In this document: positions 1 to 16,337 of the stretch, piece after piece
Layout of the letters: every line of letters begins with the position of its first letter
How positions within the stretch are numbered: the first letter of the stretch is position 1
From: Ignavibacteriota bacterium
Lineage (GTDB): Bacteria; Bacteroidota; Ignavibacteria; UBA10030
Length of the DNA: 64,000 nt
NCBI GenBank assembly: GCA_963701295.1
Contig: OY969585.1
Coordinates: 3,232,001 to 3,296,000, forward strand
Direction: 5' to 3'
Translations under genes and position numbers: made by a program
Notes under the pieces: generated by a model
Seen by the model: only the letters and a program-made list of their open reading frames with translations
The model's database searches: none
What the model was told of the DNA's origin: nothing

Positions 1-614
1 ATCCGATAACTCCCAAAAGGAATATGATGGAGAAAAAAGTCTCCGCTTTTACCAGTCTGTGTAATAAAATCCGGTTTTGCTGTCATAGGTTTCAACGTGT
101 CGGGATTCAACCCTTCCAGCTGGTACGCAAAAATCATGACACCAGCCGCTGCGTCTCCCTTTTTCATTGGAAAAACAATTCCCTCTAATCCTCCGCGGTC
201 AATATCTGGTCCGGTTGAAAAAGCCAGTGTGTACGCCTTAGCCATGTGCGCTTGTCCGCGAAAACGATCTCTGACATCCGTTCCGATATTTACAACGTAC
301 GTCGTATTACGACGAAGCTTTTCTGAAAATGCAATTTCTACTTCGGTACCACTCCAGTTGAATTCCAATGTCCCAATATACGGCGAGATAAAAATGGATT
401 CTTCGAGTGTTCGTTCTTCGACATATCGGTCGAATTCTAATCTTAATTTATTGTCGTTGAAATTCAGCTTGTTGCTATCCGGATATGTCGAAATGATTAC
501 TGGAGCAGTCATATCTACCGGCCCGCCCTCTGGTGGTTGCTGGTTTGCACATCCTAAAAGCATGACGACAGAAATAAAAAAAATGCTAAATAAAAAAATG
601 TTGGGATATTTCAT
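1..614 (-). CDS. Ig-like (Big_5-type) domain lipoprotein, truncated by the window start
   Basis: Not in the ORF track because its stop lies outside the window. The minus strand reads MKYPNIFLFSIFFISVVMLLGC-ANQQPPEGGPVDMTAP...LEFDRYVE...YVVNIG...AFSTG. It has a lipobox (LLGC) and the CAxxxxPxGGPxD motif typical of FCB-group Ig-like lipoproteins. An alternative in-frame ATG lies at 632. Confidence 0.75.
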   Translation of the reverse strand, partial: MKYPNIFLFSIFFISVVMLLGCANQQPPEGGPVDMTAPVIISTYPDSNKLNFNDNKLRLEFDRYVEERTLEESIFISPYIGTLEFNWSGTEVEIAFSEKLRRNTTYVVNIGTDVRDRFRGQAHMAKAYTLAFSTGPDIDRGGLEGIVFPMKKGDAAAGVMIFAYQLEGLNPDTLKPMTAKPDFITQTGKSGDFFLHHIPFGSYR

Positions 615-642
615 ACAATGGTACAGTTCCATGGCTTTCAAA

Positions 643-1677
643 TCACTTACTTGATAATTGTTTCAGTTCTCGTTTCGTGTGATGATACATACGAATGTTT
701 TTTTGATGATCGTTGTAATTTTTTGCAAACCGATGTCCGCCTATGCCTGTTGCAACAAAGAACAAATAGTCATGTGGTTCAGGATACAGTGTAGCTAGGA
801 TCGAAAGCTTTCCGGGATTATTAATTGGTCCTGGAGGAAGTCCTGTATGGCGATATGTATTGTACGGCGATTCTAAATCCAAGTCCAGATACCTCAACCT
901 TCTTCCTTCGCCAAGTGCATATTGCACGGTCGGATCTGCTTCCAGACGCATATGTTTCTTCAATCGATTCCAATAGACACCCGCAACCCTTGGACGCTCT
1001 TCATCAACATTCGATTCTGCCTCTACTATAGATGCAAGCGTGAGAATCTCTGACTGTGTTTTGCCGAGTTCCTCCTGTTTCTTCGTCAGACTATCATTGT
1101 AGAAATGCTTGAATCCATTCAGTATGCGTGTAAGAATTTCTTGTTCATCCGTCTGCCAGTAGAACGAGTATGTATCAGGGAGTAAATATCCTTCTATAGA
1201 CTTTGTGTTTATTCCTTGATCATGAATAAATTTTTCGTTTTGGCAGAGCGAAAGAAATAGTTTTTCATCGATTCCGAGATCATGTTCAAAACGATGCGCA
1301 ATTTTATCGAGCGGCCACCCTTCTGGTATTGTAACTGGAATGATGAGTCGCGATTTTCCATAACTAATGTCCCGCAAGATACTAAAATTGGATTGGCCGG
1401 AAACAAAAAGATATTTTCCAACTTTGATGGACTTCGTATAGCCAAGTATTCTACCAGCAAGTTCAAATGACCATGTGTTTCGGATTGCACCTGTGGTCAC
1501 AAGCGAGTCCGCAACCATCCGAAACGATGCCCCGCGTGAAATAGTGACGAGTTCGCCCTTCGGGTCATTATAATAATTCGGTAGCAGAAATATATAATAC
1601 GCACAAACAAGAACCACCGCAGCTACAGCACCCAATCCTATGAAAACCATTTTTTTCATCCTGATCGGCATCATCAT
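643..1677 (-). CDS. mltG: endolytic transglycosylase MltG
   Basis: N-terminal TM helix; VTIPEG, EGYLLPDTY, LASIVEAE, LEADPTVQY, SPYNTY..GLPPGPINNPG motifs. Confidence 0.95.
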   Translation of the reverse strand: MMMPIRMKKMVFIGLGAVAAVVLVCAYYIFLLPNYYNDPKGELVTISRGASFRMVADSLVTTGAIRNTWSFELAGRILGYTKSIKVGKYLFVSGQSNFSILRDISYGKSRLIIPVTIPEGWPLDKIAHRFEHDLGIDEKLFLSLCQNEKFIHDQGINTKSIEGYLLPDTYSFYWQTDEQEILTRILNGFKHFYNDSLTKKQEELGKTQSEILTLASIVEAESNVDEERPRVAGVYWNRLKKHMRLEADPTVQYALGEGRRLRYLDLDLESPYNTYRHTGLPPGPINNPGKLSILATLYPEPHDYLFFVATGIGGHRFAKNYNDHQKNIRMYHHTKRELKQLSSK

Positions 1678-1976
1678 TTTCTATTTCTAGGTTTCTTTTG
1701 TAGTTTCACATGTTCAAAATTTCGTGATTCGTGGACAATACACGAAAATATTTTACGAATAGCTCTGCGGGAAAATGGTCCGAGATTTATCGCCGAAACA
1801 TTTTGAAGGACTTCTTTCTCACGCTTCGGTGAATAGACATTAATGCCAGCCTGTTTTTTGATCCGTCCGATTTTGTCTACACATTGCGCCCGTTTGTTGA
1901 GCAGTTGAACTACTTTTTGATCGATGTTGTCGATACGACTGCGCCAACGGTAGATTTCTTTCTTCATATCGCCCAT
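1674..1976 (-). CDS. stand-alone AroQ-type chorismate mutase
   Basis: RSRIDNIDQKVVQLLNKRA...IGRIK...VYSPKREKEVL pattern of the CM_2 family; overlaps the mltG start. Confidence 0.85.
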   Translation of the reverse strand: MGDMKKEIYRWRSRIDNIDQKVVQLLNKRAQCVDKIGRIKKQAGINVYSPKREKEVLQNVSAINLGPFSRRAIRKIFSCIVHESRNFEHVKLQKKPRNRK

Positions 1977-1978
1977 TG

Positions 1979-2989
1979 TTATCGTAATTGAAGGTTCGGT
2001 TCTGCTGTGAGTTCAAAAGATGATTTAAATCCATGACGTAAACGTTCGTATCCTGCAGCTGCAACCATCGCACCATTATCGGTGCAAAAATCAAGTTTGG
2101 GGATAAAGAGATTCAAATGATTAATTTTTGTTTCAGCTTCTAAACGGCGGCGCAGTTCGGAATTTGCCGATACTCCTCCCGATACCGTAACATCTTTCAC
2201 ATTATACTTTTTCGCTGCTATCAAAAGTTTATCAATTAACACGTCTACAATCGCAGCTTGAAAACTTGCACAGACATCTGCAATAAATTGTTTGTTTCTG
2301 TTTATCGTCTTATCAAATCCAACTTTGCGAAGATAGTACAGCACTGATGTCTTTATTCCACTGAAGCTAAATTCATGCGAACCTTCTTCGAGATACGGGC
2401 GGGGAAAGTTGACGGCCTTCGCATTCCCATTTACCGCTGACTTGTCGACTAACGGTCCACCCGGATAGCCTATGCCCAGCATCTTCGCTACCTTATCGAA
2501 TGCTTCGCCGGCAGCATCATCTATAGTTTCGCCCAATAACTGGTATTGAAAATAATTCTTCACAAGAACAAGCTGTGTGTGACCGCCGGAGACAGTCAAG
2601 TTGACAAATGGAAACGACGGTTTTGGATCATCAATTAGGTTGGAAAAAATGTGCGCTTCCATATGATTGATGCCAATGAATGGAATGCCAAGCCCCATCG
2701 CCATCGCCTTGCCGAAACTTAGACCAACCAAAATCGAACCAATGAGTCCAGGACCATGGACAGCGGCAACGGCATCCAGATTGGCTTTATCCACCGAAGC
2801 TTTCCGAAGCGCGTCATCCACAATCGGCACAATGAGTTTTAGGTGCGCGCGCGAAGCCAATTCTGGTACTACACCGCCATGCTCGGAATGAAACAGCTGC
2901 ACAACTGTAACATTCGAAAGGAGCTTTCCGTCCCGAACGATAGCCGCAGATGTTTCATCACATGATGTTTCAATTCCAAGGATTATCAT
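1979..2989 (-). CDS. tsaD: tRNA t6A37 threonylcarbamoyltransferase TsaD
   Basis: ILGIETSCDET, GGVVPELASRAH, HMEAH, VSGGHT, DDAAGEAFDK, CTDNGAM. Confidence 0.97.
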   Translation of the reverse strand: MIILGIETSCDETSAAIVRDGKLLSNVTVVQLFHSEHGGVVPELASRAHLKLIVPIVDDALRKASVDKANLDAVAAVHGPGLIGSILVGLSFGKAMAMGLGIPFIGINHMEAHIFSNLIDDPKPSFPFVNLTVSGGHTQLVLVKNYFQYQLLGETIDDAAGEAFDKVAKMLGIGYPGGPLVDKSAVNGNAKAVNFPRPYLEEGSHEFSFSGIKTSVLYYLRKVGFDKTINRNKQFIADVCASFQAAIVDVLIDKLLIAAKKYNVKDVTVSGGVSANSELRRRLEAETKINHLNLFIPKLDFCTDNGAMVAAAGYERLRHGFKSSFELTAEPNLQLR

Positions 2990-3000
2990 AAATCAACTCA

Positions 3001-3029
3001 ATGATAATCAAAATTGACAAGCAGTGCAA
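3001..3029 (-). promoter_or_regulatory. sigma70-like promoter of the tsaD operon (TTGCAC-17-TATCAT)
   Basis: Minus strand TTGCAC TGCTTGTCAATTTTGAT TATCAT, ending 11 nt before the tsaD ATG; near-identical copy at 10075-10105. Confidence 0.7.
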
Positions 3030-3202
3030 ACTGGATATAAAATTTGAGGAGAAGGATAAAAATACTTTGTTTTATGCACTTCTCTCTGTGATCGTTCTCG
3101 ATTTAAAACCGCGTGAGCTATGGAGTGGCAATTGTTAGTTCTTCTCCCTATCTTTTTCGGAAATAATTATCTCCCTAGCAAATAGCTGATCAAGGCATTG
3201 CG

Positions 3203-6200
3203 ATGAGAAAACATTTTCTGAAACCCATACTCCTTTTTATCAGTTTATTTCTGACAGTCGCTGCAGTCACTTTCGGCAAAACTGTTATTTTCTTCGAGAA
3301 GAATTTCCCGACCATTGAGAACAGCGAAATCAGCCGTACAGCACTTGAGCATGCATTCGCATCTTTGAAACCTCGCTTCATCAACCTCGCTGAGCTACAG
3401 AAGAAAGATATATTGGCAGAGGGCGATCTGCTTGTATTGCCGTACGGATCAGCACTTCCCGCAGATGCATGGGAAACAATTCATCGCCATCTCAATCAAG
3501 GACATCTGCTTGTGTTGGGCGGCAGACCCTTCTTTGTACCTGTGTACCGAAAAGAAAACGATTGGCGAATTGACTATCCCCAGAATACATATGCCCGTTC
3601 TTTAGGCATTGAACATTCGTATGAGGCACCGCAGCATGGACCATGGAATATGCAGTGGGACGAAGATGCACCTTGGTTTCACAACACCAATTTACATGCT
3701 CGGCGAGTTTTTGTGAATGCAGGATTTGGGGAAAGATATCGAGGACTTTGTTTTCTTGTGAATGATCACGGCGATCGTCTTGCCGCTCCTGTTGTCGCTG
3801 AAGATTTTCTGGGCCTTAATCAATTACCGAGGCGTCGCGTGTACCTCAGTTTCGATGCGGAAGCTGAATTCTGGAATTCTCAAAACGGCATCGAATTGAT
3901 GCTGAAAGCAGCCATCTATGCATCTCTTGGCGGCAACAGGTTATGGCTCAATCTCCAGCAGCTTACAGTGGATCAGGGTGGATACATCTCTGGTTCCGTA
4001 GATGTTCTTCGCAATGGAAGACTTGCAAAAGTAACTCTTGAATTGCTTTCTGGATCAAAGATTCTCACGGTAAGAACCATGAACTGTGGTAATTCATTAC
4101 AAGAAAAAATCAATCTCGTGATACCATTGAATGATCCCGGACTCTATAAAATACGCGCTTCCTTATCTATCGGTGATACACTTTTTGAACGATATACATC
4201 GGGCGTTTTTGTACGCGATTCCACATTGCTGCGAACAGGGGAACGACTGGAAGCTGGACGAGACTATTTCCGGCTTAGTGGTAAGCCATACTTACCTGTT
4301 GGAGCAAATTATTTCGGTACTGATCCTTACACTCCAGGATTTTTCTACGGCGGCAGCCTTGGTGGAAACGCGTGGGTATGGGAAAAAGATTTTGCCGAAA
4401 TGGAACAACAAGGATTTACGATCGTTCGTACTGGAATCTGGCTTAACCGTGCATCGTACTTAAGTTGGGTAAGCGGTGCTCCGGATGAACGTTTATTAAA
4501 TGCTCTCGAAGCATACCTCATTGCAGCCGCGCATCATCATATGCAAGTCATTTTTACTTTTTTTGCATTTGATCCACAAACTGAGATGCAGGGACAAGGT
4601 CAAGATGGATCTCGATTGGGACCGGGATCAAATCCATACCTAGATCCGGTGGCAATTGAAGCACAGCTTCTCTATATTCGTGCAATCACCTCCCGTTTTC
4701 GGGATGTGCCATTTTTAAGTTTCGATATTATCAATGAACCAAGTTTTTCCAATCCAAAACGTATTTGGAAAGGTAATTCACCTAATGGAGATCCAGCAGA
4801 ACTTGCTGCATGGCAAAAGTGGCTTAAGAAGCGTTACAATACTATCGACGAACTTGCTCACGCATGGCGAACTACTCCTGTAGAATTAGCTTCATTCGAG
4901 AAAGTACCGCTTCCGTCTTTTTCTGATCTGGAATCATCTCGCTCTGGTAATCCGCAAAATGTTCGAGCAGTTGACTATAACCTTTTCGCACAGGACGCTT
5001 TTATACAATGGGTCAACACTATCATTCAAGGAATTCGGAGTACAGGAGCGCAGCAAGCGATTACCGTCGGTCAGGATGAGGGTGGTATTGCAGATAGAGT
5101 GCTCAATCAATTTTGGGCAAATTCCCAAGTCACGTATACTGTGAATCATAGCTGGTGGCGCGATGATGCGCTCCTCTGGAGTTCAATAGCAGCGAAAACT
5201 TTGAATAAGCCAAACCTTATCGGCGAAACAGGCCCTCAGCCGGCATCATCGATAGATGGTTCTTGGCGTTGGGATGATGTACAAGGAATGGCACTTCTTG
5301 AAAGAAAACTCGCCCTTGGTTTTGCATGTGCAAATGCAGGAGTTCTTCATTGGGATTGGTCACGCACAGATAATTTTGGAATCTTACGCCGTGACGGTTC
5401 ACAGAAGCAATGGATGGACGTTTTGAGAGGAGTAGCGGCATTTGCAGGCAATGCACAAACATATGCCACAGAAGCACAATTGCCTGAAATTGCATTGGTA
5501 CTGCCGCAGTCTCTTCAGCTCTCTGTCCTTTCAGGATGGGCTGTTGCAACACAGCAATATGCAGTACGAACATTGTACAATCAGGCTCGCGGAACTGCGT
5601 TCGTAATTGGCGAGTATCAACTTTCGCAAATGCCTGATGCCAAATTGATTATTGTTCCCTCCCCTTGGGTAATAAGTCAGGATGCATGGAATATATTGAT
5701 GACAAAGGTAAAAGCTGGCGCAATCCTTCTTATTTCTGGAAGAATAGATGCCGATGAACACTGGGCACCGATTCCTAAGCGTGTACGCGACTGGAATGTG
5801 GATTACAAATCTGCACCACTCACAACCCGTGAGGTAACGTTAGATTGGCCGGAAGGTACTGCGCATCTAAGTTATTCGGGCGACAAAATAACCTATGCTG
5901 AACGAGGTGTGCTCGGAAATAATAAGACCTTCCTTGATCTTCAGCTTGGAAAAGGCAGGATACTATATTTTGCACTGCCGCTTGAATTTGCGGATCAATT
6001 AAATGAAGTAGGACGCATCTACAAGTTTGCTATGAAACGCGCAGGAGTGAGCGCTGCGTACGAGACTAAGTGTGAAGATCCCGGTATCCTCATTTGTCCA
6101 ACTCAATTACCGGATGCTACTTTATATGTTTTGACATCTGAAAGTGCAGGTTCTGCCTCTGTTATATTTACGGATAAGAAAAGCGGTGCAGATTTTCAAC

Positions 6201-6280
6201 TAAACATTGCACCCGGAAGAGCGGCTCTGCTACTTATAGGCAAGGATGGAAAAATCATTGCTTCCTATAATGTCCATTGA
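3203..6280 (+). CDS. secreted clan GH-A glycoside hydrolase (GH42/GH5-like, beta-galactosidase/mannanase-like)
   Basis: Signal peptide; acid/base motif DIINEP; probable nucleophile IGETG; GH42-like WLKKRYNTIDELAHAW segment; C-terminal trimerisation-like domain. Confidence 0.7.
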   Translation: MRKHFLKPILLFISLFLTVAAVTFGKTVIFFEKNFPTIENSEISRTALEHAFASLKPRFINLAELQKKDILAEGDLLVLPYGSALPADAWETIHRHLNQGHLLVLGGRPFFVPVYRKENDWRIDYPQNTYARSLGIEHSYEAPQHGPWNMQWDEDAPWFHNTNLHARRVFVNAGFGERYRGLCFLVNDHGDRLAAPVVAEDFLGLNQLPRRRVYLSFDAEAEFWNSQNGIELMLKAAIYASLGGNRLWLNLQQLTVDQGGYISGSVDVLRNGRLAKVTLELLSGSKILTVRTMNCGNSLQEKINLVIPLNDPGLYKIRASLSIGDTLFERYTSGVFVRDSTLLRTGERLEAGRDYFRLSGKPYLPVGANYFGTDPYTPGFFYGGSLGGNAWVWEKDFAEMEQQGFTIVRTGIWLNRASYLSWVSGAPDERLLNALEAYLIAAAHHHMQVIFTFFAFDPQTEMQGQGQDGSRLGPGSNPYLDPVAIEAQLLYIRAITSRFRDVPFLSFDIINEPSFSNPKRIWKGNSPNGDPAELAAWQKWLKKRYNTIDELAHAWRTTPVELASFEKVPLPSFSDLESSRSGNPQNVRAVDYNLFAQDAFIQWVNTIIQGIRSTGAQQAITVGQDEGGIADRVLNQFWANSQVTYTVNHSWWRDDALLWSSIAAKTLNKPNLIGETGPQPASSIDGSWRWDDVQGMALLERKLALGFACANAGVLHWDWSRTDNFGILRRDGSQKQWMDVLRGVAAFAGNAQTYATEAQLPEIALVLPQSLQLSVLSGWAVATQQYAVRTLYNQARGTAFVIGEYQLSQMPDAKLIIVPSPWVISQDAWNILMTKVKAGAILLISGRIDADEHWAPIPKRVRDWNVDYKSAPLTTREVTLDWPEGTAHLSYSGDKITYAERGVLGNNKTFLDLQLGKGRILYFALPLEFADQLNEVGRIYKFAMKRAGVSAAYETKCEDPGILICPTQLPDATLYVLTSESAGSASVIFTDKKSGADFQLNIAPGRAALLLIGKDGKIIASYNVH

Positions 6281-6399
6281 GCTTTTTATAGAATAAAAAT
6301 CTTTTGCGACTATACAAGATCCATCGAAAGGCATAGACAGAAATGAAATTTTTCATCGAGGGATAACAATCTGAATAAATAAATTCTCTACGTTTCACA

Positions 6400-7557
6400 T
6401 CACCCAATATAGACTCTCGGCACACGCGAACTGATGCTGCAAAGAAACTCATAGGAAACGGTCCCAATTTTATCGCAGAGGGATTCAAGAGGGATAGTGT
6501 TGCCATCCATTTCACCGAAGAGCAGAACATCATCCCCATTGTATGCTGTTCCATCCATCCCGATATCGACCATACATTGATCCATACATATCGTCCCCAC
6601 AACCGGATATTTTTTTCCGCGAACAACAACTTCGCCTTTATTTGAAAGCTGACGAAAATATCCGTCGCCATATCCGATAGGTAAAGTCACAATGCGTGTT
6701 TGCTTGCCTGGGGCATAGGTATGGTCATAGCTTATTCCGGTTTGGGCAGGTACTACTTTGAAATAAGCGACCTTCGTCTTCAGTGTCATGACGGGCTTCA
6801 GTTTCTTATCGCCAAACCTAACATCAGGCAAATATCCGTTCGGATTATATCCGTAAAGCATAATTCCAGGCCGCACCATGGTATAATGTGAATTCTTATA
6901 ATTCATGATTCCGGCCGAGTTGGCAATGTGAATAAGTTCAGGCAGGAGCCTCTTTTTTTCTATCATATTCAATACCGACTCAAAACGATTCAATTGTTGG
7001 TTTGTAAAATCGGGACCCGTCTCGGCTTTTGCGAAGTGTGAGCATATTCCTTTAATGGTCATGGATTTGCATTGATAGGATGTTTCAATAAAGCGCTCTG
7101 CATGATTCCAATGGACACCAATACGTTCCATGCCTGTATCGATCTTTAAATGAACTTTTGCCTCTTTCCCCATGTCCTTTGCGGCAGTTGCTATGGCAGC
7201 AGATTTATCAATGGAAGAACTTGTAATTTCGATATCATGTTGTATGAATTCTGCAATTTGATCGGTATTAATAGCACCGAGCACAACAATAGGAGCTGTG
7301 ATTCCACATTTTCTTAAATAGACTCCTTCTTCAAGAAATGCCACACCAAGATACTCGACACCTTGTTTCAAAAGTTCGCTTGATATTTCATACAGCCCAT
7401 GTCCGTACGCATTCGCTTTGACCATCGCCATAATTTTTACATCATTGTGAATGAATGACCTGACGATAGAAAGATTATTACGCAAGTTGTCGAACGATAT
7501 TTCTGCGCGAGTAGGCCGGTTTTTATAGGTTTCAACTCTTGCAATCATTTCGGTCAC
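6400..7557 (-). CDS. alr: alanine racemase
   Basis: MVKANAYGHG (PLP lysine), HLKIDTGMERIG, VRPGIMLYG, GYGDGY, ICMDQ. Confidence 0.93.
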   Translation of the reverse strand: MTEMIARVETYKNRPTRAEISFDNLRNNLSIVRSFIHNDVKIMAMVKANAYGHGLYEISSELLKQGVEYLGVAFLEEGVYLRKCGITAPIVVLGAINTDQIAEFIQHDIEITSSSIDKSAAIATAAKDMGKEAKVHLKIDTGMERIGVHWNHAERFIETSYQCKSMTIKGICSHFAKAETGPDFTNQQLNRFESVLNMIEKKRLLPELIHIANSAGIMNYKNSHYTMVRPGIMLYGYNPNGYLPDVRFGDKKLKPVMTLKTKVAYFKVVPAQTGISYDHTYAPGKQTRIVTLPIGYGDGYFRQLSNKGEVVVRGKKYPVVGTICMDQCMVDIGMDGTAYNGDDVLLFGEMDGNTIPLESLCDKIGTVSYEFLCSISSRVPRVYIG

Positions 7558-7639
7558 CTATGATTAATCTTATGCGCTGAAGAGTATGTTGATCACATTC
7601 AATAAAAATACCTGCAATCGATTTTTTTAGATTGTAAAA

Positions 7640-8797
7640 CTATTTTTCTTCTGGATCAGATAAGTTTTTGTGTATAATTTTCGCCCCATCGAAACCATTG
7701 AACGTGGTTGATGACGCAGTGCTATAAGCACCGATGTTTTCCGTATATAGAAAATCGCCTACTTCTAGATTTCCCGGCAATTCTGCTGAGAGAGTAATTT
7801 TATCGAAGCTGTCGCAGGTAGGCCCGACAACCGCACAAACTTCTTTCTCACCTTCTTTGAACGCAGTAAAGTTCGGAATCCAATGATCGTAGACCACGCC
7901 GGAAAATGTATGGTACACACCATCATTAATGTGGTAGAAGATTTTGCTGTCCCTTCGTGCTTTTCCGATGATTTCTGAAACCAGCGTGGCTGCTGTTGCA
8001 ACAATGAATCGCCCGGGTTCAGCAAGAATTTCTATGTCATCCGGAAAGAGGCGCTTGAATTCTGAGTTTAACAATACTGCCAATTGTTTAAATTCTGGCA
8101 CTTGAGGATCGTACGGAACCGGAAATCCGCCGCCAATATCCACTAAATTCAAATTGAATCCTTTTTTGCGAGCGTTGTGGAATATCTCCGAAGTAAACGC
8201 AAGCGCCGAAGTATAATTATCAAAGTTTGTGCACTGGCTTCCCACGTGGAAACTGATGCCTTCCACTTTTAATCCCATGTCAAATGCTTGGTGTATCAGT
8301 TTCTCTGCATCTGCGAGTTCGGCTCCGAATTTCGAGCTCATCTCTACTTGCGAACCTGTGTCCGGAACTTTCAGCCGTATGACTAATCCTGCTGTATCGC
8401 AATAGTCCTTCAACTTTTTCAGTTCAGCAGCATTATCATAGGTCACCAGAGGTTTATATTGTTTGATCTTCTGTAGTGTTGCACGATCTTTGATTGTGTT
8501 GGAAAAAATGATTTTGTCCCATATAAAATGCTTTTTTTCTTTCGTTTCGAAGTGCCTAATATATTGATACACCTGCATGAATTCGTTGTACGAGGCAACA
8601 TCAAAGCTCGATCCCTCTTTGAACAACGTCTCGACGATTTGCTGTGTAGAATTCGCTTTCACCGCATAATAACACTGAACACGCGGCAGGTGTTTTTTGA
8701 ATGTCCTGTAGTTCTCCCGAATCTTGTTGTGATCCAGTATGAACAATGGTGTACCGTGTTGTACTACTAATTTTAAGAGATCATCTTTCATGGTCAA
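7640..8797 (-). CDS. fold-type III PLP ornithine (lysine/ornithine) decarboxylase
   Basis: YAVKAN, SKFG, FHVGSQ, DIGGGF, EPGR, YDH specificity element, GPTCDSFD, GAY. Confidence 0.88.
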   Translation of the reverse strand: MTMKDDLLKLVVQHGTPLFILDHNKIRENYRTFKKHLPRVQCYYAVKANSTQQIVETLFKEGSSFDVASYNEFMQVYQYIRHFETKEKKHFIWDKIIFSNTIKDRATLQKIKQYKPLVTYDNAAELKKLKDYCDTAGLVIRLKVPDTGSQVEMSSKFGAELADAEKLIHQAFDMGLKVEGISFHVGSQCTNFDNYTSALAFTSEIFHNARKKGFNLNLVDIGGGFPVPYDPQVPEFKQLAVLLNSEFKRLFPDDIEILAEPGRFIVATAATLVSEIIGKARRDSKIFYHINDGVYHTFSGVVYDHWIPNFTAFKEGEKEVCAVVGPTCDSFDKITLSAELPGNLEVGDFLYTENIGAYSTASSTTFNGFDGAKIIHKNLSDPEEK

Positions 8798-8837
8798 TTC
8801 TCACGTCAATCAATTTATCATAGTCGTTGCATTCACA

Positions 8838-10028
8838 TTATGCAGACAATTTTCTTATTAGTTCTTTGAGTTCCTCAATTTCCTTATTGTTCTCAAGATA
8901 TGATTTAATCAACTTTTCTCGTAATTCTTGTCCACGATCATACAATCGTTTTGGCTTCTTTGGTTTCGTCGTTTGCAAAACATATGCGGCCATCAGTGGA
9001 AATGCTACTGTCACATCAACATAGGCAGTAACCGTCTCTTCAATTTTCGTCGGATCGATTTTTCCCCAACTTGCAGCTTCGCTCGGCGGTGCGCCGGAAA
9101 GTCCGCCGGTATCGGGACGTGCATCGGTAATGTTAATATCATAATCCTGCCCGGCTTCTGGAATCATCAGCACTTCTTGTATCTGCGGCTCGGTTTGCAG
9201 CATAAAGTTCTTGGGACTTCCGCCCCCGATGAGAATCACGCCGGTCTTTCCTTTTTCGTATTGCTTGGCGTTCAAGATGATTGCTGTCGAATCATTGACA
9301 TCGATACTCGGATTGATCTTCAATTTAAACTTATCCAATAAACCTGATGCCTCAGCTAAGAGTTCCACTCCAGCAATATTCATCCCGATTGTGGAATCAC
9401 CCGGCGATGAAGTGAAAACCGGAATGCCGTTGCGAAACGCTGCAGCAAGAACACTCACCTGTCCGATGTTGCTCTGTTGTTCAATGTCATTAAGGACTTT
9501 GCCGAGGTGATGATAGAATTCTCGTGTTCCCATTTCTTTTTGAAATTCCGGACGCAGCATAATCTTCCGCAGGATTTTATCCGTTTCCATCAATACATCT
9601 TGATAATCAAAAAGGATGTCATAAATTCTTGTCACACCTTTTTCGCGCAGATCGGCATCATCCACATTATGACTGCCCCGGTAGAGCGGCATGTTCAATG
9701 CAAAGTGCATATCGTGATACATATTGGCGCCGGTGGCGGTCAGCCAATCTACAAAACCATGATTCATCAACGGAATAATAGTTGATGGCCCTAAACCTGC
9801 TGGAGTTAATGCGCCAGCGATGCTGAGACCAATCGTGACATCTTCCTGAGAATATTTATCCCGCAATAATTGACAGGCAGCTCGAAGCCTTCCACCGTTG
9901 TATGCATCCATATTATCTATGACGGCGGCAAGATTGCTGTCTTTTGAGATGGGCTGAGGAAGCACTCTCTTTCCATTGAGATATTTATCTTTACCCGGAC
10001 AATCCTTTTTATGGTGTTCCATGAACAT
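8838..10028 (-). CDS. speY: deoxyhypusine synthase-like protein (probable homospermidine synthase, SpeY-type)
   Basis: AGALTPAGLG, TGANMYHD, GDSTIG, GGGSPKN, DTGGLSGA, catalytic EAASWGK. Confidence 0.85.
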   Translation of the reverse strand: MFMEHHKKDCPGKDKYLNGKRVLPQPISKDSNLAAVIDNMDAYNGGRLRAACQLLRDKYSQEDVTIGLSIAGALTPAGLGPSTIIPLMNHGFVDWLTATGANMYHDMHFALNMPLYRGSHNVDDADLREKGVTRIYDILFDYQDVLMETDKILRKIMLRPEFQKEMGTREFYHHLGKVLNDIEQQSNIGQVSVLAAAFRNGIPVFTSSPGDSTIGMNIAGVELLAEASGLLDKFKLKINPSIDVNDSTAIILNAKQYEKGKTGVILIGGGSPKNFMLQTEPQIQEVLMIPEAGQDYDINITDARPDTGGLSGAPPSEAASWGKIDPTKIEETVTAYVDVTVAFPLMAAYVLQTTKPKKPKRLYDRGQELREKLIKSYLENNKEIEELKELIRKLSA

Positions 10029-10074
10029 TCCTTTCTGCGAATACCATTAGGTTTGTTTACTTTTCTTGGGCTTT

Positions 10075-10103
10075 ATGATAACCAAAAATGGCAAGCAGTG
10101 CAA
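10075..10103 (-). promoter_or_regulatory. sigma70-like promoter of the DHS-ODC-alr operon (TTGCAC-17-TATCAT)
   Basis: Minus strand TTGCAC TGCTTGCCATTTTTGGT TATCAT; 28/31 identical to the tsaD promoter region. Confidence 0.7.
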
Positions 10104-10264
10104 ACAAGAGAGACCATGGAGACCTATTCTGCGAAATCTTTCATCCCTCTTCTTCAATATCTTTTCTATTCTCTTTTCTGCTTTTTCACCCCTCTTTATT
10201 GATTTTCTTTTTAGACATCGGTCTCTACAATAAAAACATTCTTCGTCTTTTGTCATTTTCTTCC

Positions 10265-10293
10265 TTGCCTCCCTTCGCTTTTTTGGCTATATT
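10265..10293 (+). promoter_or_regulatory. sigma70-like promoter of rpmB (TTGCCT-17-TATATT)
   Basis: TTGCCT CCCTTCGCTTTTTTGGC TATATT, followed by a GGAG RBS at 10321. Confidence 0.65.
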
Positions 10294-10330
10294 AAAGTGT
10301 TCAAAATCAAATTTTCAATTGGAGTGGCAC

Positions 10331-10525
10331 ATGGCAAGAATTTGTGAAGTGTGTGGCAAGAAACCTATGGCAGGAAATAATGTCAGCCACGCACATAATC
10401 GAAGTCCGAGGCGTTTTCTTCCTAATCTTCAAAACGCACGTGTGAAATTGGAATCCGGTGAGGTGAAAAAAATTCAAGTGTGTACCAACTGTATCAAATC
10501 CGGGAAGATTAAGAAAGCAGCCTAA
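10331..10525 (+). CDS. rpmB: 50S ribosomal protein L28 (Zn-binding type)
   Basis: [34 protein letters not shown]...VCTNCIKSG; real start at 10331 after GGAG (the ORF-track extension is spurious). Confidence 0.97.
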
Positions 10526-10551
10526 TTTTTTTCGTTCAATGTTGTGAACGT

Positions 10552-10581
10552 AAAAAATCCCGCCACTCAGCGGGATTTTTT
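10552..10581 (+). terminator. intrinsic terminator after rpmB
   Basis: AAAAAATCCCGC-CACTCA-GCGGGATTTTTT. Confidence 0.85.
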
Positions 10582-10661
10582 GTCAGTCGCCATGAGACAA
10601 TGACCGTTATCGGCGTGTTTCGAAATATCTTTGAACTCATCAGGAATCTCGAAATTAAACG

Positions 10662-11285
10662 ATGAAATTCTTTTCTCCACCAAACCAATTGACATTTCTG
10701 AGAATTTTGCTCACACCGGTGTTCCTTGTCTTTTTGTTCTCTCCATATCCAATAATACGTCAGTGGTCGCTTGTTGTGTTCATCCTTGCTGCCATCACCG
10801 ATTGGTACGACGGATGGGTCGCGCGACGCTGGGGATACGTAACGCGCTGGGGCACATTCTTTGACCCGCTTGCAGATAAAGTAGTCACTTCAGCGGCTCT
10901 CATTGCATATATCTATCTCGGTTTAGTTGCAGGATGGATGGTATGGATTATCGTCATTCGCGATGCCATCATTACACTTCTCCGTTCCTATGCAGAATAC
11001 AAAGGCAAACCGGTCGAGACATCTAAGCTTGCCAAAATAAAAACGTTCGTGCAGTTCGTTATCATCTGCTATTTACTCATCCTGTACGTTGCCCAGAATA
11101 CACAATCGCTCCGCGAGAACTATGGTGAACTCATTCATACCCTTCTCAATTATTCACTTATCTATTCAATGATGATCATTGTTACAACTCTCACGCTTTG
11201 GACCGGTATCTCCCATATCATTGTTAATTGGAAAACTATCCAGGAACTCTATGGTTCGTCTGATAAAGCCACGCAAACAGATTAG
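10662..11285 (+). CDS. pgsA: CDP-diacylglycerol--glycerol-3-phosphate 3-phosphatidyltransferase
   Basis: PNQLTFLR, DWYDGWVAR...G.FFDPLADK CDP-alcohol phosphatidyltransferase motif. Confidence 0.92.
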   Translation: MKFFSPPNQLTFLRILLTPVFLVFLFSPYPIIRQWSLVVFILAAITDWYDGWVARRWGYVTRWGTFFDPLADKVVTSAALIAYIYLGLVAGWMVWIIVIRDAIITLLRSYAEYKGKPVETSKLAKIKTFVQFVIICYLLILYVAQNTQSLRENYGELIHTLLNYSLIYSMMIIVTTLTLWTGISHIIVNWKTIQELYGSSDKATQTD

Positions 11286-11772
11286 TTCTTCATCGGGCCC
11301 CGAACCCTCGCTGCCGATAAAATTGTTTGCATCCGGATTATATACCGGGTATGTTCCTGCCGCTTCCGGTACTCTCGGCAGCGCGATAGCAGTAGCGTTC
11401 TACTTCATCCCTGGATTCGAGTCACCGCTCATCCTCAGTTTCGTTCTCCTCCTTGTGTTTGGATTAGGCATCAGAGCTTCATCGATTATGGAAAAACGGT
11501 ACGGACACGACCCCGCTGAAGTGACCATCGATGAAGTAGTGGGGATGTGGATAACGCTTTTCGTTCTTCCAAAAGCACTATTGGTTGTACTTGCCGCTTT
11601 TTTTGTTTTTCGCTTCTTCGATATTATCAAACCCATCCCTGCTCGCAAGTTTGACACTATGCATGGCGGGTTTGGCATTATGATGGACGATGTCGTTGCT
11701 GGCATCTATGCAAATATAACAATGCAGCTTCTATTGCTTATTCCGTTTATCAAAAAACTTCTTTTGAGGTAG
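11251..11772 (+). CDS. pgpA: phosphatidylglycerophosphatase A
   Basis: G..PAASGTLGS, DPAEVTIDEVVG, FRFFDIIKP, GIMMDDVVAG. Confidence 0.92.
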   Translation: MVRLIKPRKQISSSSGPEPSLPIKLFASGLYTGYVPAASGTLGSAIAVAFYFIPGFESPLILSFVLLLVFGLGIRASSIMEKRYGHDPAEVTIDEVVGMWITLFVLPKALLVVLAAFFVFRFFDIIKPIPARKFDTMHGGFGIMMDDVVAGIYANITMQLLLLIPFIKKLLLR

Positions 11773-11778
11773 AATACT

Positions 11779-13035
11779 TTGAAAGCGGAAATCATTTCTA
11801 TCGGCGATGAACTCCTTATTGGGCAAGTCATAAATTCCAATCAAGCCTTCATCGCTGAAAAACTGAATTCCGTCGGCGTCTTTGCCGACCGAATGACGAC
11901 GGTGGGAGACGATGAAAAAGAAATTCTTGACGCATTCCAAAAAGCATTCACAACACATGATGTCGTTACCGTTACCGGCGGACTTGGCCCTACACACGAC
12001 GACATCACTCGCGCGGTTACTTGCAAGTTCTTCAATACCGATCTTGTGCTCAACGATGAAGCGCTCGAGAATGTGAAACGAATCTTTGCCCGGCTCAGCG
12101 CGCCGCCGCGGAAAGTAAACGAAGATCAAGCACTCGTACCTCGCGGTTGTATTGTCATCCAAAACCGCCTTGGCACTGCACCAGGGTACTTCTTCGATCG
12201 TGATGGCAAATTCTTTTTTATCATGCCTGGTGTTCCCTATGAAATGAAGGCGATGATGGGCGACTATGTCCTCCCGTTTCTCAAAAAACAAAATACGGGA
12301 CTGGTCATTCGTCACCTCACTTTAAAAACTACGGGTATTGCAGAATCATTTCTTGCTGAACAAATTGGAGATGTGAAAAATCTTTTCGCAGAGGATTCCG
12401 GCATTACTCTCGCGTTTCTGCCAAGTCCGCTTGGTGTGCGTCTGCGCATTACGGCTAAAGCGAAATCTGTTGATGAAGTTGAACAGAATATTCGGGATGT
12501 CGAGTCAAAACTGCGCAGCAAAGCAGGGAAGTATATCTACGCAAGCGGCGATAAAGAGTTAGAAAAGGTCGTCGGCACATTATTGAAAGAACAAAAGTTC
12601 ACACTCGCCGTCGCGGAATCATGCACCGGCGGGTTGATGGCCGACCGAATAACAAATATTTCCGGAAGTTCAGAGTATTTCGAACGCGGAATGATCACTT
12701 ACAGCAACAAATCCAAAATACAGGAACTCGGTGTTCCATCCGACTTCATCAAACAATATGGTGCTGTAAGCCGTCAAGTTGCTGAGGCGATGGCGTTTGG
12801 CATTCGCACAAAATCTAATGCTGACATCGGAATTTCTACAACCGGCATCGCAGGTCCAACAGGCGCCTCTGCAAAAAAACCCGTCGGACTTGTGTGGATT
12901 GGATATTCGGATAAAAATGAAACATTCGCGCTACAGTTCAATTTTGGCGGAGAACGCAGAATCATCAAAGAACGAGCTGCACAAGCTGCATTGGAGTTAG
13001 TAAGACGGAAAATATTGAGAATCTCCGAGCAATAA
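11779..13035 (+). CDS. cinA: competence/damage-inducible protein CinA (MoCF-like domain + PncC NMN deamidase)
   Basis: IGDELLIG, GGLGPTHDDIT, AESCTGG, GAVS, TGIAGP; TTG start. Confidence 0.95.
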   Translation: MKAEIISIGDELLIGQVINSNQAFIAEKLNSVGVFADRMTTVGDDEKEILDAFQKAFTTHDVVTVTGGLGPTHDDITRAVTCKFFNTDLVLNDEALENVKRIFARLSAPPRKVNEDQALVPRGCIVIQNRLGTAPGYFFDRDGKFFFIMPGVPYEMKAMMGDYVLPFLKKQNTGLVIRHLTLKTTGIAESFLAEQIGDVKNLFAEDSGITLAFLPSPLGVRLRITAKAKSVDEVEQNIRDVESKLRSKAGKYIYASGDKELEKVVGTLLKEQKFTLAVAESCTGGLMADRITNISGSSEYFERGMITYSNKSKIQELGVPSDFIKQYGAVSRQVAEAMAFGIRTKSNADIGISTTGIAGPTGASAKKPVGLVWIGYSDKNETFALQFNFGGERRIIKERAAQAALELVRRKILRISEQ

Positions 13036-13036
13036 C

Positions 13037-13600
13037 ATGTCTGCCATCCGCACATTCATTGCCCTCCCCGCTTCAAGTGATGTTCAACAGCAAATGACGG
13101 TTGTGCAATCCGAGCTGAAAGCATCACAAGCAGATGTGAAGTGGGAGCTGCAGGATAAATTTCATATTACTTTAAAATTTTTAGGGAGTGTTGAACTGTC
13201 GAACATCGAATCACTCTCGTCGGCACTCGCAGGTATGGTAAAGCAAATTCCGGCTTTCGAACTCATGTATAATTCACTCGGCGTTTTTCCAAATCTTCAT
13301 AATCCACGCGTGATTTGGATTGGCACGAAATCCAATCAGGTGGTGCTCGATCTGCAATCGAGCGTAGAGCGAGTGTGCTCGGATTTCGGCTTCCAGAAAG
13401 AAGAACGCGCTTTTCATCCGCATATTACATTTGGCAGAGTGAAAGGAACACGCAATCTTACACGCTTGACTGAAGCGATAAAAACCGTTACTTTTGAACC
13501 AATGCAATCACGATGTTCTGAATTGTTGTTGATGAAAAGCGACCTTCGACCGAGCGGTTCCATCTATACAATTTTGAAATCATTTCCTCTTCAACCTTAA
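13037..13600 (+). CDS. thpR: RNA 2',3'-cyclic phosphodiesterase (2H family)
   Basis: Two HxT motifs ([18 protein letters not shown]); classic cinA-thpR-recA synteny. Confidence 0.92.
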
Positions 13601-13613
13601 AAGGGAGAGCTCT

Positions 13614-14696
13614 ATGTCTGAAAACAATAAAGAAGCAAAACTGGCAGCACTTAAAATTGCCATCGACCAAATCGAGAAACAGCACGGCAAAGGATCCATC
13701 ATGCGATTGAATGAAGGGCCGATTGCCAAAATTGATGCGATCTCCACAGGTTCCATTTCATTGGATGCCGCATTGGGTATCGGCGGTGTGCCGCGCGGAC
13801 GGGTGATTGAAATCTACGGCCCGGAATCTTCCGGTAAAACGACCATCTGTTTGCACATCATTGCCGAAGCACAGAAGTCCGGCGGCTTAGCGGCATTCAT
13901 CGACACCGAGCATGCGATGGACATTGCTTATGCCAAGAAGTTAGGCGTTGATGTGAACAATCTCCTTCTCTCCCAACCCGAGTTTGGCGAGCAAGCGCTC
14001 GAAATTGTAGAGACGTTAGTTCGCAGCAATGCAATCGATATCATCGTTATTGATTCAGTTGCTGCGTTGACACCGCGTGCTGAAATTGAAGGCGAGATGG
14101 GTGATCCTACAATGGGTGTTCAAGCGCGGTTAATGTCGCAGGCGCTGCGTAAACTCACATCCGCAATCAGCAAATCCAAAACATCAGTGATGTTTACAAA
14201 TCAACTCCGCCAGAAAATCGGCGTGATGTTCGGGAATCCTGAGACCACGACCGGCGGCAATGCATTGAAATTCTATGCGTCCGTGCGATTGGATATCCGC
14301 CGCATCGAAGCGATTAAAGATGGAACCAATGTCATCGGCAATCGCACGCGTGTAAAAGTAGTCAAGAACAAAGTGGCGCCGCCATTCAAGGAAGCGCAAT
14401 TTGATATTCTGTACAATGAAGGCATTTCCAAACTCGGCGATTTGATTGACACTGCTGTCGAACTCAATGTCATAGTAAAAAGCGGCTCGTGGTTCTCCTA
14501 TAAAGATGACCGCATCGGACAAGGGCGCGATTCGGTTAAAACGTTCCTTCAAGCCAATCCGAATATTGCGAAAGAAATTGATACTGAACTTCGCAGGAAA
14601 CTCGGACTCTTGCCCGCGGAACCGACTCCCGCTCATGTAAAAGCAGATAAAGCGGAAAAGGCAGAAGGACCAGCGCCAGCAATGAAGAAAAAGTAA
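13614..14696 (+). CDS. recA: recombinase RecA
   Basis: [40 protein letters not shown]. Confidence 0.99.
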
Positions 14697-14712
14697 AAGG
14701 GAGTCGCAAACT

Positions 14713-14731
14713 TCCGCCAAAAAAAGGCGGA
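14713..14731. repeat. short TCCGCC-A7-GGCGGA palindrome at the recA/islet junction
   Basis: Perfect 6-bp stem; no U-tract on +, so more REP-like than terminator-like. Confidence 0.4.
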
Positions 14732-14835
14732 CAAGTTAGCTTGTGGTTTTGGCATATTTCAAAACTATTTTGGACAGCGGTGAAAATTTATCTCAAATGA
14801 CAAAATGAAATAATTCTGAAGAAAGAAGGTAAATA

Positions 14836-15357
14836 GTGAACATATTTGGAAAAAAGGAAATTGATAATAAGAAAGATGAATTATACGAAGCCGTAGAGAA
14901 TAACGATATTGATAAAATTAAACAGTTATTAAGTAAGGGTGCTGATATAAATAAAAAATATATCATGGGAGAAACTGTTGTAACTGTTTTAAAAATTGCA
15001 GCAAATAAGGGTAATTTTGAAATAGTACAATTATTAATTGAAAATGGTGTTGATATAAATGCTGAAACGGGTAAAGGTGAGTCTGCATTAGCGAGATCAG
15101 TAAATATGAAAAATTATAACGTTACAGAATTGCTAATTAATAATGGCGCTGATATAAATATTAAAAGCAGTTCTGGTTCAACCCTATTAATGGATGCAGC
15201 AAGAAATGGAGATTTAAATACTGTTAAATTATTAGTAGAAAAAGGTATCGAAATAAATACAAGACAAGAACAAGGATTTACAGCGTTAAGATGGGCAAAA
15301 GGAATGAACAGATATGATGTGATTGATTATTTGCAATCTAAAGGAGCTATTATCTAA
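14836..15357 (+). CDS. ankyrin-repeat protein (about 4 repeats), AT-rich
   Basis: Repeated A..G....V.LLIE.GADIN units; GTG start after AGAAGG. Confidence 0.9.
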   Translation: MNIFGKKEIDNKKDELYEAVENNDIDKIKQLLSKGADINKKYIMGETVVTVLKIAANKGNFEIVQLLIENGVDINAETGKGESALARSVNMKNYNVTELLINNGADINIKSSSGSTLLMDAARNGDLNTVKLLVEKGIEINTRQEQGFTALRWAKGMNRYDVIDYLQSKGAII

Positions 15358-15391
15358 TACTACTAACTTAATTATAGGGGAGGAAACTAAA

Positions 15392-15652
15392 ATGAACATT
15401 TTCAGCAGTTTATTCGGTAGAAATAGAAATACGAGTAGGGATATTTCTAATTCTGATAATTCCAGAGAAATAGAATTTGTTATTCCTTGTGGAATTTGTG
15501 GTTATAAAACGAATGTAAGAGTTGTAATTGATTGGGTAGGTAATATTTTATCGGGAGAAGGTAAGAATCACAGATTTCTTTGTCTCAATTGTAATAAGTA
15601 TTTTTTAGTTGATAAGGAATCGTTGAAGCAGTATACAAATAGATTTGTTTAA
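15392..15652 (+). CDS. small putative zinc-ribbon protein (CxxC...CxxC), AT-rich
   Basis: Strong RBS GGGGAGG before ATG 15392; IPCGICG and FLCLNCN. Confidence 0.7.
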   Translation: MNIFSSLFGRNRNTSRDISNSDNSREIEFVIPCGICGYKTNVRVVIDWVGNILSGEGKNHRFLCLNCNKYFLVDKESLKQYTNRFV

Positions 15653-15698
15653 AGAATTGCTGAAAAGAATATTGAGATAATATTACTGATTTACTACT

Positions 15699-16337
15699 TT
15701 GATCATTACAAAAATTCAACGGATACGTGGGAAGCGTGCACAGTACGGTGTGTACCTTGATGGATCGCTCGCATTACAGTTGAGTGACTGGACGATCGGG
15801 AAGTTTGGCATGCGCACTGGCGATGATCTGGATGAGCAGACGGTCGATACACTCAAGTCGGCAGAAGCAGAATCACGGGCAAAGAATATCGCCATCAACT
15901 ATTTATCGTATCGGCCGAGAAGCTCGAAAGAAATCACTTTCCATTTGACGAAGAAAGGATTTAAGCACGAGTGCGCTGAAAACGTGACCCGGTATCTTCA
16001 ATCGATAAAAATGATCGACGATAACAAATTTGCGCACGCCTTCGTGCGAGACAGCTTGAAAAGAAAGCCGACGGGTCAGGCTCTGCTGCGTCAGCAGTTA
16101 TTGGCAAAAGGAATTTCGTCTGCAATGGCGGATACGGTTCTTGCAGAACTTGTTTCACCGCAGAGCCAGCAGGCATCGGCACTTCAGGCGGCAAAACGAA
16201 AAATACAATTGACGCAGCATGTAACAAAAAAGATTGACACAGAAAAACGAAAGAAACGCATTCTCGACTTCCTCCTGCGCCGGGGTTTTTCGTATGAAAT
16301 TGCATTAAAAACTATTCACACCACACTGGATCACTAA
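15699..16337 (+). CDS. recX: regulatory protein RecX
   Basis: AINYLSYRPRSSKEI, IDDNKFA, LLAKGIS, FLLRRGFS. Confidence 0.92.
   Translation: MIITKIQRIRGKRAQYGVYLDGSLALQLSDWTIGKFGMRTGDDLDEQTVDTLKSAEAESRAKNIAINYLSYRPRSSKEITFHLTKKGFKHECAENVTRYLQSIKMIDDNKFAHAFVRDSLKRKPTGQALLRQQLLAKGISSAMADTVLAELVSPQSQQASALQAAKRKIQLTQHVTKKIDTEKRKKRILDFLLRRGFSYEIALKTIHTTLDH

Follow-up and report, generated by a model that had tools for sequence, protein, structure and literature searches.

We present an analysis of a short direct repeat that brackets a block of genes between tsaD and rpmB in a 64,000-nucleotide stretch of an Ignavibacteriota bacterium genome (contig OY969585.1, positions 3,232,001 to 3,296,000), here referred to as the window, whose coordinates are used unless stated otherwise. 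Comparison of the genome that contains the window (G000; complete, 3.64 Mb) with its relatives suggests that the two copies of the repeat are the predicted promoter of tsaD and a duplicate of that promoter, which now stands before the homospermidine biosynthesis gene hss, a putative decarboxylase gene and alr. The finding is a well-documented case of promoter capture, an already known type of event: hss appears to have captured a duplicate of the tsaD promoter, since hss in the relatives lacks the motif and tsaD keeps it. The locus points to neither a new kind of element nor a regulon joining t6A modification and polyamine synthesis. The argument refers to the following features.

1979..2989, minus strand: tsaD, the t6A tRNA-modification enzyme, left flank of the block (TIGR03723, 416 bits, cut-off 296)
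3001..3031, minus strand: left copy of the repeat, predicted sigma-70-type promoter of tsaD-chorismate mutase-mltG (-35 box TTGCAC at 3024-3029, -10 box TATCAT at 3001-3006)
3203..6280, plus strand: glycoside-hydrolase-like protein (GH), 1025 aa, with a predicted signal peptide (weak PF02449/PF00150)
6400..7557, minus strand: alr, the sole alanine racemase match in the genome (TIGR00492, above cut-off)
7640..8797, minus strand: pyridoxal-phosphate (PLP)-dependent decarboxylase of the ornithine/diaminopimelate/arginine (Orn/DAP/Arg) family, here called ODC (PF02784, PF00278; under the lysA cut-off)
8838..10028, minus strand: hss, deoxyhypusine-synthase-like homospermidine biosynthesis protein, SpeY-like (PRK00770, 463.7 bits, cut-off 450)
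10075..10105, minus strand: right copy of the repeat, predicted promoter of hss-ODC-alr (-35 box at 10098-10103, -10 box at 10075-10080)
10265..10293, plus strand: predicted rpmB promoter TTGCCT-17-TATATT, used as a control for promoter conservation
10331..10525, plus strand: rpmB (L28), right flank of the block (TIGR00009)

The two copies of the repeat match at 28 of 31 positions and are spaced 7074 nt apart. Read on the minus strand, both have the form TTGCAC-17 nt-TATCAT, and the three mismatches (repeat positions 8, 14 and 17) all fall within the spacer, in agreement with an earlier reading of the window from its letters and open reading frames (the sequence-only reading), which had described each copy as a complete promoter shape. 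That reading placed one copy before tsaD and the other before a group of genes named DHS-ODC-alr. The placement is borne out by our gene calls, as are the names tsaD, alr and rpmB; "DHS" becomes hss by the PRK00770 cut-off, and "ODC" holds at the level of the protein family (PF02784, PF00278), with ornithine decarboxylase as the likely activity judging from gene context. In 20 of 20 Markov resamples of window positions 2001-11000, the best direct 31-nt repeat reached 22-23 matches, compared with the 28 observed. The repeat has exactly two copies in G000: a search for a third found nothing within 8 mismatches of either copy, and with this result the possibility of a common dispersed repeat, which the earlier reading had named as a potential refutation of its own proposal, was dropped. 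Short sub-motifs of the repeat have just 2-42 occurrences, and an Rfam search of window positions 1-16000 gave no match to an RNA family.

The copy number of the motif follows the presence of the block throughout the genus, which is represented by 16 genomes. The motif occurs twice in each of the eight carriers of the block, with no exception among them, and once in each of the eight non-carriers, where the single copy stands upstream of tsaD; tsaD thus retains the motif in all 16 genomes. The empty site predicted by the sequence-only reading, that is, tsaD directly divergent from rpmB with one 31-mer, was found at 12 of the 21 loci examined, with gaps of 150-655 nt between the two genes. At eight of the 21 loci hss-ODC-alr lies between tsaD and rpmB, and one (G018) has an unrelated 7-kb insertion at this site and the motif once only. 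Among the non-carriers of the genus, the empty site lies on one contig in seven (six, plus G014 on a short contig), and in G007 the site is interrupted by a contig break. The carriers form one clade with support 100/100 in a tree of RpoB and RpoC; an initial tree from RpoB alone was a quick search only.

Both copies fit the dominant upstream promoter pattern of G000, TTG-17-TAnnnT. The sequence TTG-N3-spacer-TA-N3-T with a 17-nt spacer is found 449 times in 1621 upstream regions of this genome, compared with 132 +/- 7 times in shuffled sequences, and the same pattern with spacers of 15, 16, 18 or 19 nt shows no enrichment in these regions; the scores of the two copies fall within the top 8-13% of the best sites there. 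A 17-position motif with at most one mismatch occurs upstream of tsaD at 35 of 43 loci from the family and the order, and the element upstream of tsaD is a single-copy ortholog across the family. Among seven carriers (G010 was excluded because its tsaD promoter is replaced), the identity of the spacer is 0.96 for the hss copy and 0.94 for the tsaD copy, and that of the 30 nt upstream is 0.51 and 0.42, respectively. For the rpmB promoter, used as the control, the identity of the spacer is 0.89. These values suggest that both copies are conserved as promoters are and point to promoter activity of each. The 31-bp repeat starts and stops at the two promoter boxes. The probable reason is that selection has preserved the core of a longer duplication whose flanks drift, rather than that the repeat is an attachment (att) site. 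The distance from the -10 box to the ATG of tsaD is only 11 nt (2990-3000), from which a nearly leaderless mRNA is predicted; in the relatives this distance is 9-11 nt in many cases and 70-140 nt in others, some with hairpins.

The block had been described as accessory, which does not agree with the distribution of its genes. Both hss and alr are found at a single locus in each of the 16 genomes, at other places in the non-carriers; the GH slot alone varies, and the term fits this slot only. In all eight non-carriers, hss-ODC is located ~30 nt behind the last gene of an etfB-etfA-nuclease-TPR operon, where hss lacks the motif (6-7 of the 17 motif positions are mismatched), and alr is located behind atpD-atpC in seven of them and elsewhere in G007. 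The GH gene is present at the tsaD-rpmB site in 5/8 carriers and missing there in 3/8; G001 and G009 have a 69% homologue at another locus, and G010 has a different gene in the GH slot. In three of the eight carriers a PurF-like gene lies between ODC and alr. The PurF-like protein (L039:8052-9458, 468 aa) starts with MSGFFG, has no N-terminal cysteine and has homologues in G008, G013, G006, G015 and G082; its gene appears to be a member of the hss-ODC-alr cassette in the three carriers that was lost from the genome of the window. The composition of the block was checked and is not foreign, as its GC content (0.42-0.45) and its GC content at third codon positions (GC3) resemble those of the flanks. 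The close type of alr (72-91% identity) was seen only in this genus and in G082, compared with 40-43% in four other members of the family, and the close type of hss is patchy across the family. On a longer time scale, the cassette was probably acquired.

Outside the carriers, two strict matches to the motif were found in one of the 70 other genomes of the family, namely G082, which is sister to the genus. Its tsaD-rpmB site is empty; at the TPR locus, the second copy follows the terminator of the TPR gene and precedes hss. This hss copy matches the tsaD promoters of G007 and G015 at 27/29 positions, the tsaD promoter of G082 itself at 24/29 and the hss copy of G000 at 23/29. The link between the TPR gene and the adjacent MFS gene is intact in 5/5 outgroups and broken in 6/6 carriers examined, and the break point in the carriers corresponds to the position of hss-ODC in the non-carriers. 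The displaced copy in G082 suggests that the promoter copy travels with hss and is probably older than the present arrangement. With hss of G082 preceded by a tsaD-type copy away from an empty tsaD-rpmB site, the arrival of the block probably did not create the repeat afresh, and the claim that it was generated when the block entered at the tsaD promoter is not supported in that form. Entry at tsaD as the first step can be kept only as an older event, or under a tree that is not preferred and not rejected. Under either order, the tsaD promoter is the source from which the second copy was duplicated.

The reading that we prefer, and to which we give slightly better than even chances, is that the tsaD promoter was copied by integrase-free host recombination and that hss-ODC was later relocated into the tsaD-rpmB spacer. 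The course of events that we infer is as follows. Host recombination without an integrase likely duplicated the tsaD promoter and gave the otherwise promoterless hss-ODC genes a copy of their own. This copy would have remained attached to hss at the TPR site, as in G082, where it lies behind the terminator of the etfB-etfA-nuclease-TPR operon; on the preferred tree, the simplest reading is that the non-carriers lost it through fusion of hss to the upstream operon. On the stem of the carriers, the most likely event is a move of hss-ODC, together with the PurF-like gene and alr, to the spacer between tsaD and rpmB, with the two similar promoters as the place of recombination or as its partners and one copy left at each end. 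The GH gene would be a separate, exchangeable passenger.

Several observations weigh against this course of events. A clade consisting of G082, G007 and the non-carriers is not rejected by the approximately unbiased (AU) test (p-AU 0.116 with two proteins and 0.313 with 11 proteins), so the state with the block at tsaD could be ancestral. The argument for an older copy comes from one assembled genome, G082, and the metagenome scan gave no second example of its kind. Both carrier copies have in common a 7-nt spacer tract that is absent from the hss copy of G082, and therefore gene conversion or a fresh partial duplication is needed; a permutation test for ongoing homogenisation of the copies in seven carriers was negative (p 0.15-0.48). 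Furthermore, the intact cassette of four genes is seen in carriers only, and the junctions have decayed to the point that the recombination route is unreadable from them. The spacer type of the carriers was also considered as the ancestral type and dropped, as G049 matches it at just 24/29 and is no nearer to it than G015 or G061.

Some of the same observations would fit a different history, which we regard as a serious competitor while inclining against it. Here, a single entry of the hss-ODC-purF-like-alr cassette at the tsaD promoter would have duplicated this promoter in the common ancestor of the two genera, and the carriers would have retained the resulting arrangement. Elsewhere, the block would have been excised through recombination between the repeats, which would have restored the empty site, and the piece with one promoter copy would have been reinserted behind the TPR gene. 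Such an entry is consistent with the four-gene cassette being intact only in the carriers G003, G008 and G013, with fragments of the same order surviving elsewhere (ODC and the PurF-like gene in G015 and G006, the PurF-like gene and alr in G082), with the confinement of the close alr type to the genus and G082, and with the promoter-hss unit of G082, which resembles the expected excised piece; the tree it requires is the one that the AU test does not reject. However, in the maximum-likelihood trees (from 2 and from 11 proteins) the carriers branch from within lineages whose hss is located at the TPR site, and these trees would demand 2-3 independent insertions at the same site. The break between the TPR and MFS genes in the carriers would then be a coincidence. 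The sequence-only reading had offered yet another alternative, namely a dedicated promoter/operator common to tsaD and the polyamine genes, which would form a translation-linked regulon. The fact that both copies, including the spacer, are kept across genomes whose TsaD proteins are 82-93% identical speaks for it, and so does the copy kept before hss at the unlinked locus of G082. The searches for further targets speak against it, since neither genomes nor metagenomes yielded a third one: G000 has no third copy, hss is not preceded by a copy in eight of the 16 genomes of the genus, and among 28 hss loci of other genera the motif is found in G082 only. A stricter motif gave 42 metagenome loci, of which 29 are before tsaD, 12 before hss and one before other genes beside GH, so that tsaD or hss lies downstream of 41 of the 42 (for two of the 41, the assignment comes from an incomplete gene at the end of a contig, and the counts are not independent as some contigs come from genomes of our own set). 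Second strict or odd matches in G035 and G060 precede other genes. Moreover, the spacer tract varies between lineages, the spacer of the rpmB promoter is conserved nearly as well, and the element scores as an ordinary promoter of the main class, all of which makes the regulon improbable.

Direct repeats that flank a block, together with an empty site, could also indicate that the 31-mer is the core of an att site and the block an integrase-less remnant of an integrative element targeting the tsaD promoter. The spacer between tsaD and rpmB often takes unrelated DNA (G003, G010, G018, G025, G028, G036), and 14 matches to the tyrosine recombinase family PF00589 in the genome could act in trans. 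The sequence-only reading had noted that no integrase is nearby, and indeed there is no PF00589 match within the window, the nearest of the 14 being >100 kb outside (transposases and serine recombinases were not searched). We regard this explanation as very unlikely, as no recombinase is found among the block open reading frames (ORFs) of the eight carriers, the cargo consists of single-copy resident genes, the trees of these genes agree with the species tree as regards the carrier clade, and the arrangement has one origin in one clade; in addition, the unrelated insertion in G018 has one motif copy only, the ends of the repeat match the promoter boxes, as selection predicts, and GC and GC3 are like those of the flanks. 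Convergence of two unrelated promoters on the same sequence is harder still to credit. A T-rich spacer is common to the promoters of this genome, and other promoter-shaped pairs reach 24-28/29 with unrelated flanks, but only 58 of 478,731 pairs of intergenic promoter-shaped sites reach at least 26/29 (40 are identical, mostly in longer repeats), and the second copy is located before hss in every two-copy genome of the family.

Recombination of the kind that we prefer for the tsaD promoter appears to have a younger counterpart in G000. At G000:C1:722,865 and 725,392 (L408), 191 nt that include a promoter and ~50 codons of a histidine kinase gene are duplicated with 87% identity and bracket a gene of 639 aa. 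G001 has a single copy and no such gene, five of five relatives have a single copy within 1.5 kb upstream of the kinase, and in G013 a homologue of the 639-aa gene lies directly before the kinase; judging from these comparisons, the pair shows the same integrase-free pattern at a younger stage. In G010 (L032 / L003), a junction with ~1.3 kb of foreign DNA lies at the first codons of tsaD. This insert contains a 350-aa gene without a Pfam family, and the tsaD promoter is replaced by a G007-like version with a 70-nt leader. Both the kinase locus and the tsaD junction of G010 have the shape of a one-sided homologous insertion. A more general and rather speculative proposal, which we would hold only loosely, is that promoter cores, whose conservation in this lineage is unusually high, may serve as portable recombination targets, where a copy travels with a cassette, steers it back to the parent promoter and in this way reshuffles genes such as alr and hss without an enzyme of a mobile element. 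If this is true, short promoter homology would be a route to changes of gene order that could be counted across the family, and promoter-guided relocation would be a recurring force on gene order in the lineage.

About a dozen further promoter-shaped pairs in G000 match at 26-29/29 positions with poorly matching flanks, mostly before accessory genes (for example, 3,401,472/3,457,070 and 287,924/289,440). The gene bracketed by the pair at G000:287,924/289,440 was not found at E<=1e-60 in 5/5 relatives. At G000:C1:1,134,396-1,164,317, at least five different accessory genes in succession are each preceded by a promoter-shaped 29-mer; these 29-mers resemble one another (24-25/29) while their flanks are unrelated, and attC-like pairs lie near this segment.

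Other features next to the repeat are the following.

643-1677, minus strand: mltG, downstream of tsaD and codirectional
1674-1976, minus strand: chorismate mutase, downstream of tsaD and codirectional
3014..3043, plus strand: TTGACA-18-TAAAAT, a match to 11/12 consensus positions that overlaps the left copy; function doubtful
3126..3154, plus strand: promoter-shaped site TGGCAA-17-TATCTT upstream of GH, conserved in 5/5 genomes with GH adjacent

The GH protein has weak matches to GH42/GH5 only, and the site at 3126..3154 is probably the promoter of its own gene. The TTGACA of the site at 3014..3043 takes in two of the three mismatches of the repeat; it is kept in 5/5 GH-adjacent genomes and lost in the sisters G001 and G009. 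A role of this site as the GH promoter is doubtful, as GH has a conserved site of its own and such consensus matches are common (24 found, 20.4 expected). The conserved start of hss is probably the second ATG, at 10022, judging from the starts in relatives. A 9-nt inverted repeat at 2981-3009 (GATTATCAT, 11 nt, ATGATAATC) is formed by the start of tsaD and the left copy at its -10 end, and is probably due to chance because it is not kept in most carriers. Further along the window, recA and a recX-like gene are separated by an AT-rich insert (14836-15652, GC ~0.34) that contains an ankyrin-repeat gene as well as a small ORF with a cysteine motif. The tsaD-rpmB spacer looks like an insertion hotspot, with unrelated genes within or beside it in G003, G018, G025, G028, G036, L338, L352, L356, L357 and L359, including ABC transporters, a Y1 transposase-like ORF and beta-propeller-like proteins; the Y1 transposase-like ORF, in G003, is a private insert.

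We found no paper on this locus or on the promoters of this group in a literature search that covered openly accessible papers. The locus provides a clean natural case of promoter capture, for which the empty allele, a copy at a displaced position and a younger analogous event are all available. It also illustrates that short direct repeats on either side of a block may be what selection has kept of a duplicated promoter rather than an att site, and that a block which looks accessory can consist of relocated core genes.

Genomic islands flanked by att sites and cis-mobilizable elements typically occupy a conserved site that is empty in relatives, and are bounded there by direct repeats. The tsaD-rpmB block resembles them in its direct repeats and in the empty site of relatives, and differs from them in that it has no recombinase, its target is a promoter and not a tRNA gene or gene end, its cargo is resident and single-copy, it has one origin and its composition is that of the host. 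It is not an integrative element by the two defining properties of such elements, as both a recombinase and foreign cargo are lacking. Single-crossover insertion-duplication is another process where an insertion is anchored by homology on one side. In homology-facilitated illegitimate recombination (HFIR), as described in PMC3240628, insertion is usually coupled with deletion, and 3-10 bp of microhomology are found at the illegitimate joint. The duplication at the kinase promoter and the tsaD junction of G010 have the shape of such an insertion, with homology on one side; in contrast to the cases described there, the joints of our block have decayed and any microhomology is unreadable. As for the captured genes, SpeY of Anabaena, a deoxyhypusine synthase homologue, is assigned to homospermidine synthesis (PMC10385936, citing Burnat et al. 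2018). The product of our hss is by its sequence a homologue of this kind, and its gene lies beside that of a putative putrescine-forming decarboxylase; the predicted source of putrescine is therefore an enzyme of the ODC type, where the Anabaena pathway uses SpeA/SpeB. The closest parallels are the events of promoter capture by duplication or deletion reported for experimental E. coli in PMC6614815 and bioRxiv 10.1101/2023.11.15.567300, including that of citT in the E. coli long-term evolution experiment, which is cited in PMC6614815. As in those events, a gene comes under a pre-existing promoter via rearrangement with no dedicated recombinase, and the original gene keeps its copy. Unlike the experimental captures described there, the tsaD case is natural, old and fixed across a clade, the promoter comes from an essential gene, just a core of 29-31 nt survives, and the captured resident genes also change their chromosomal address.

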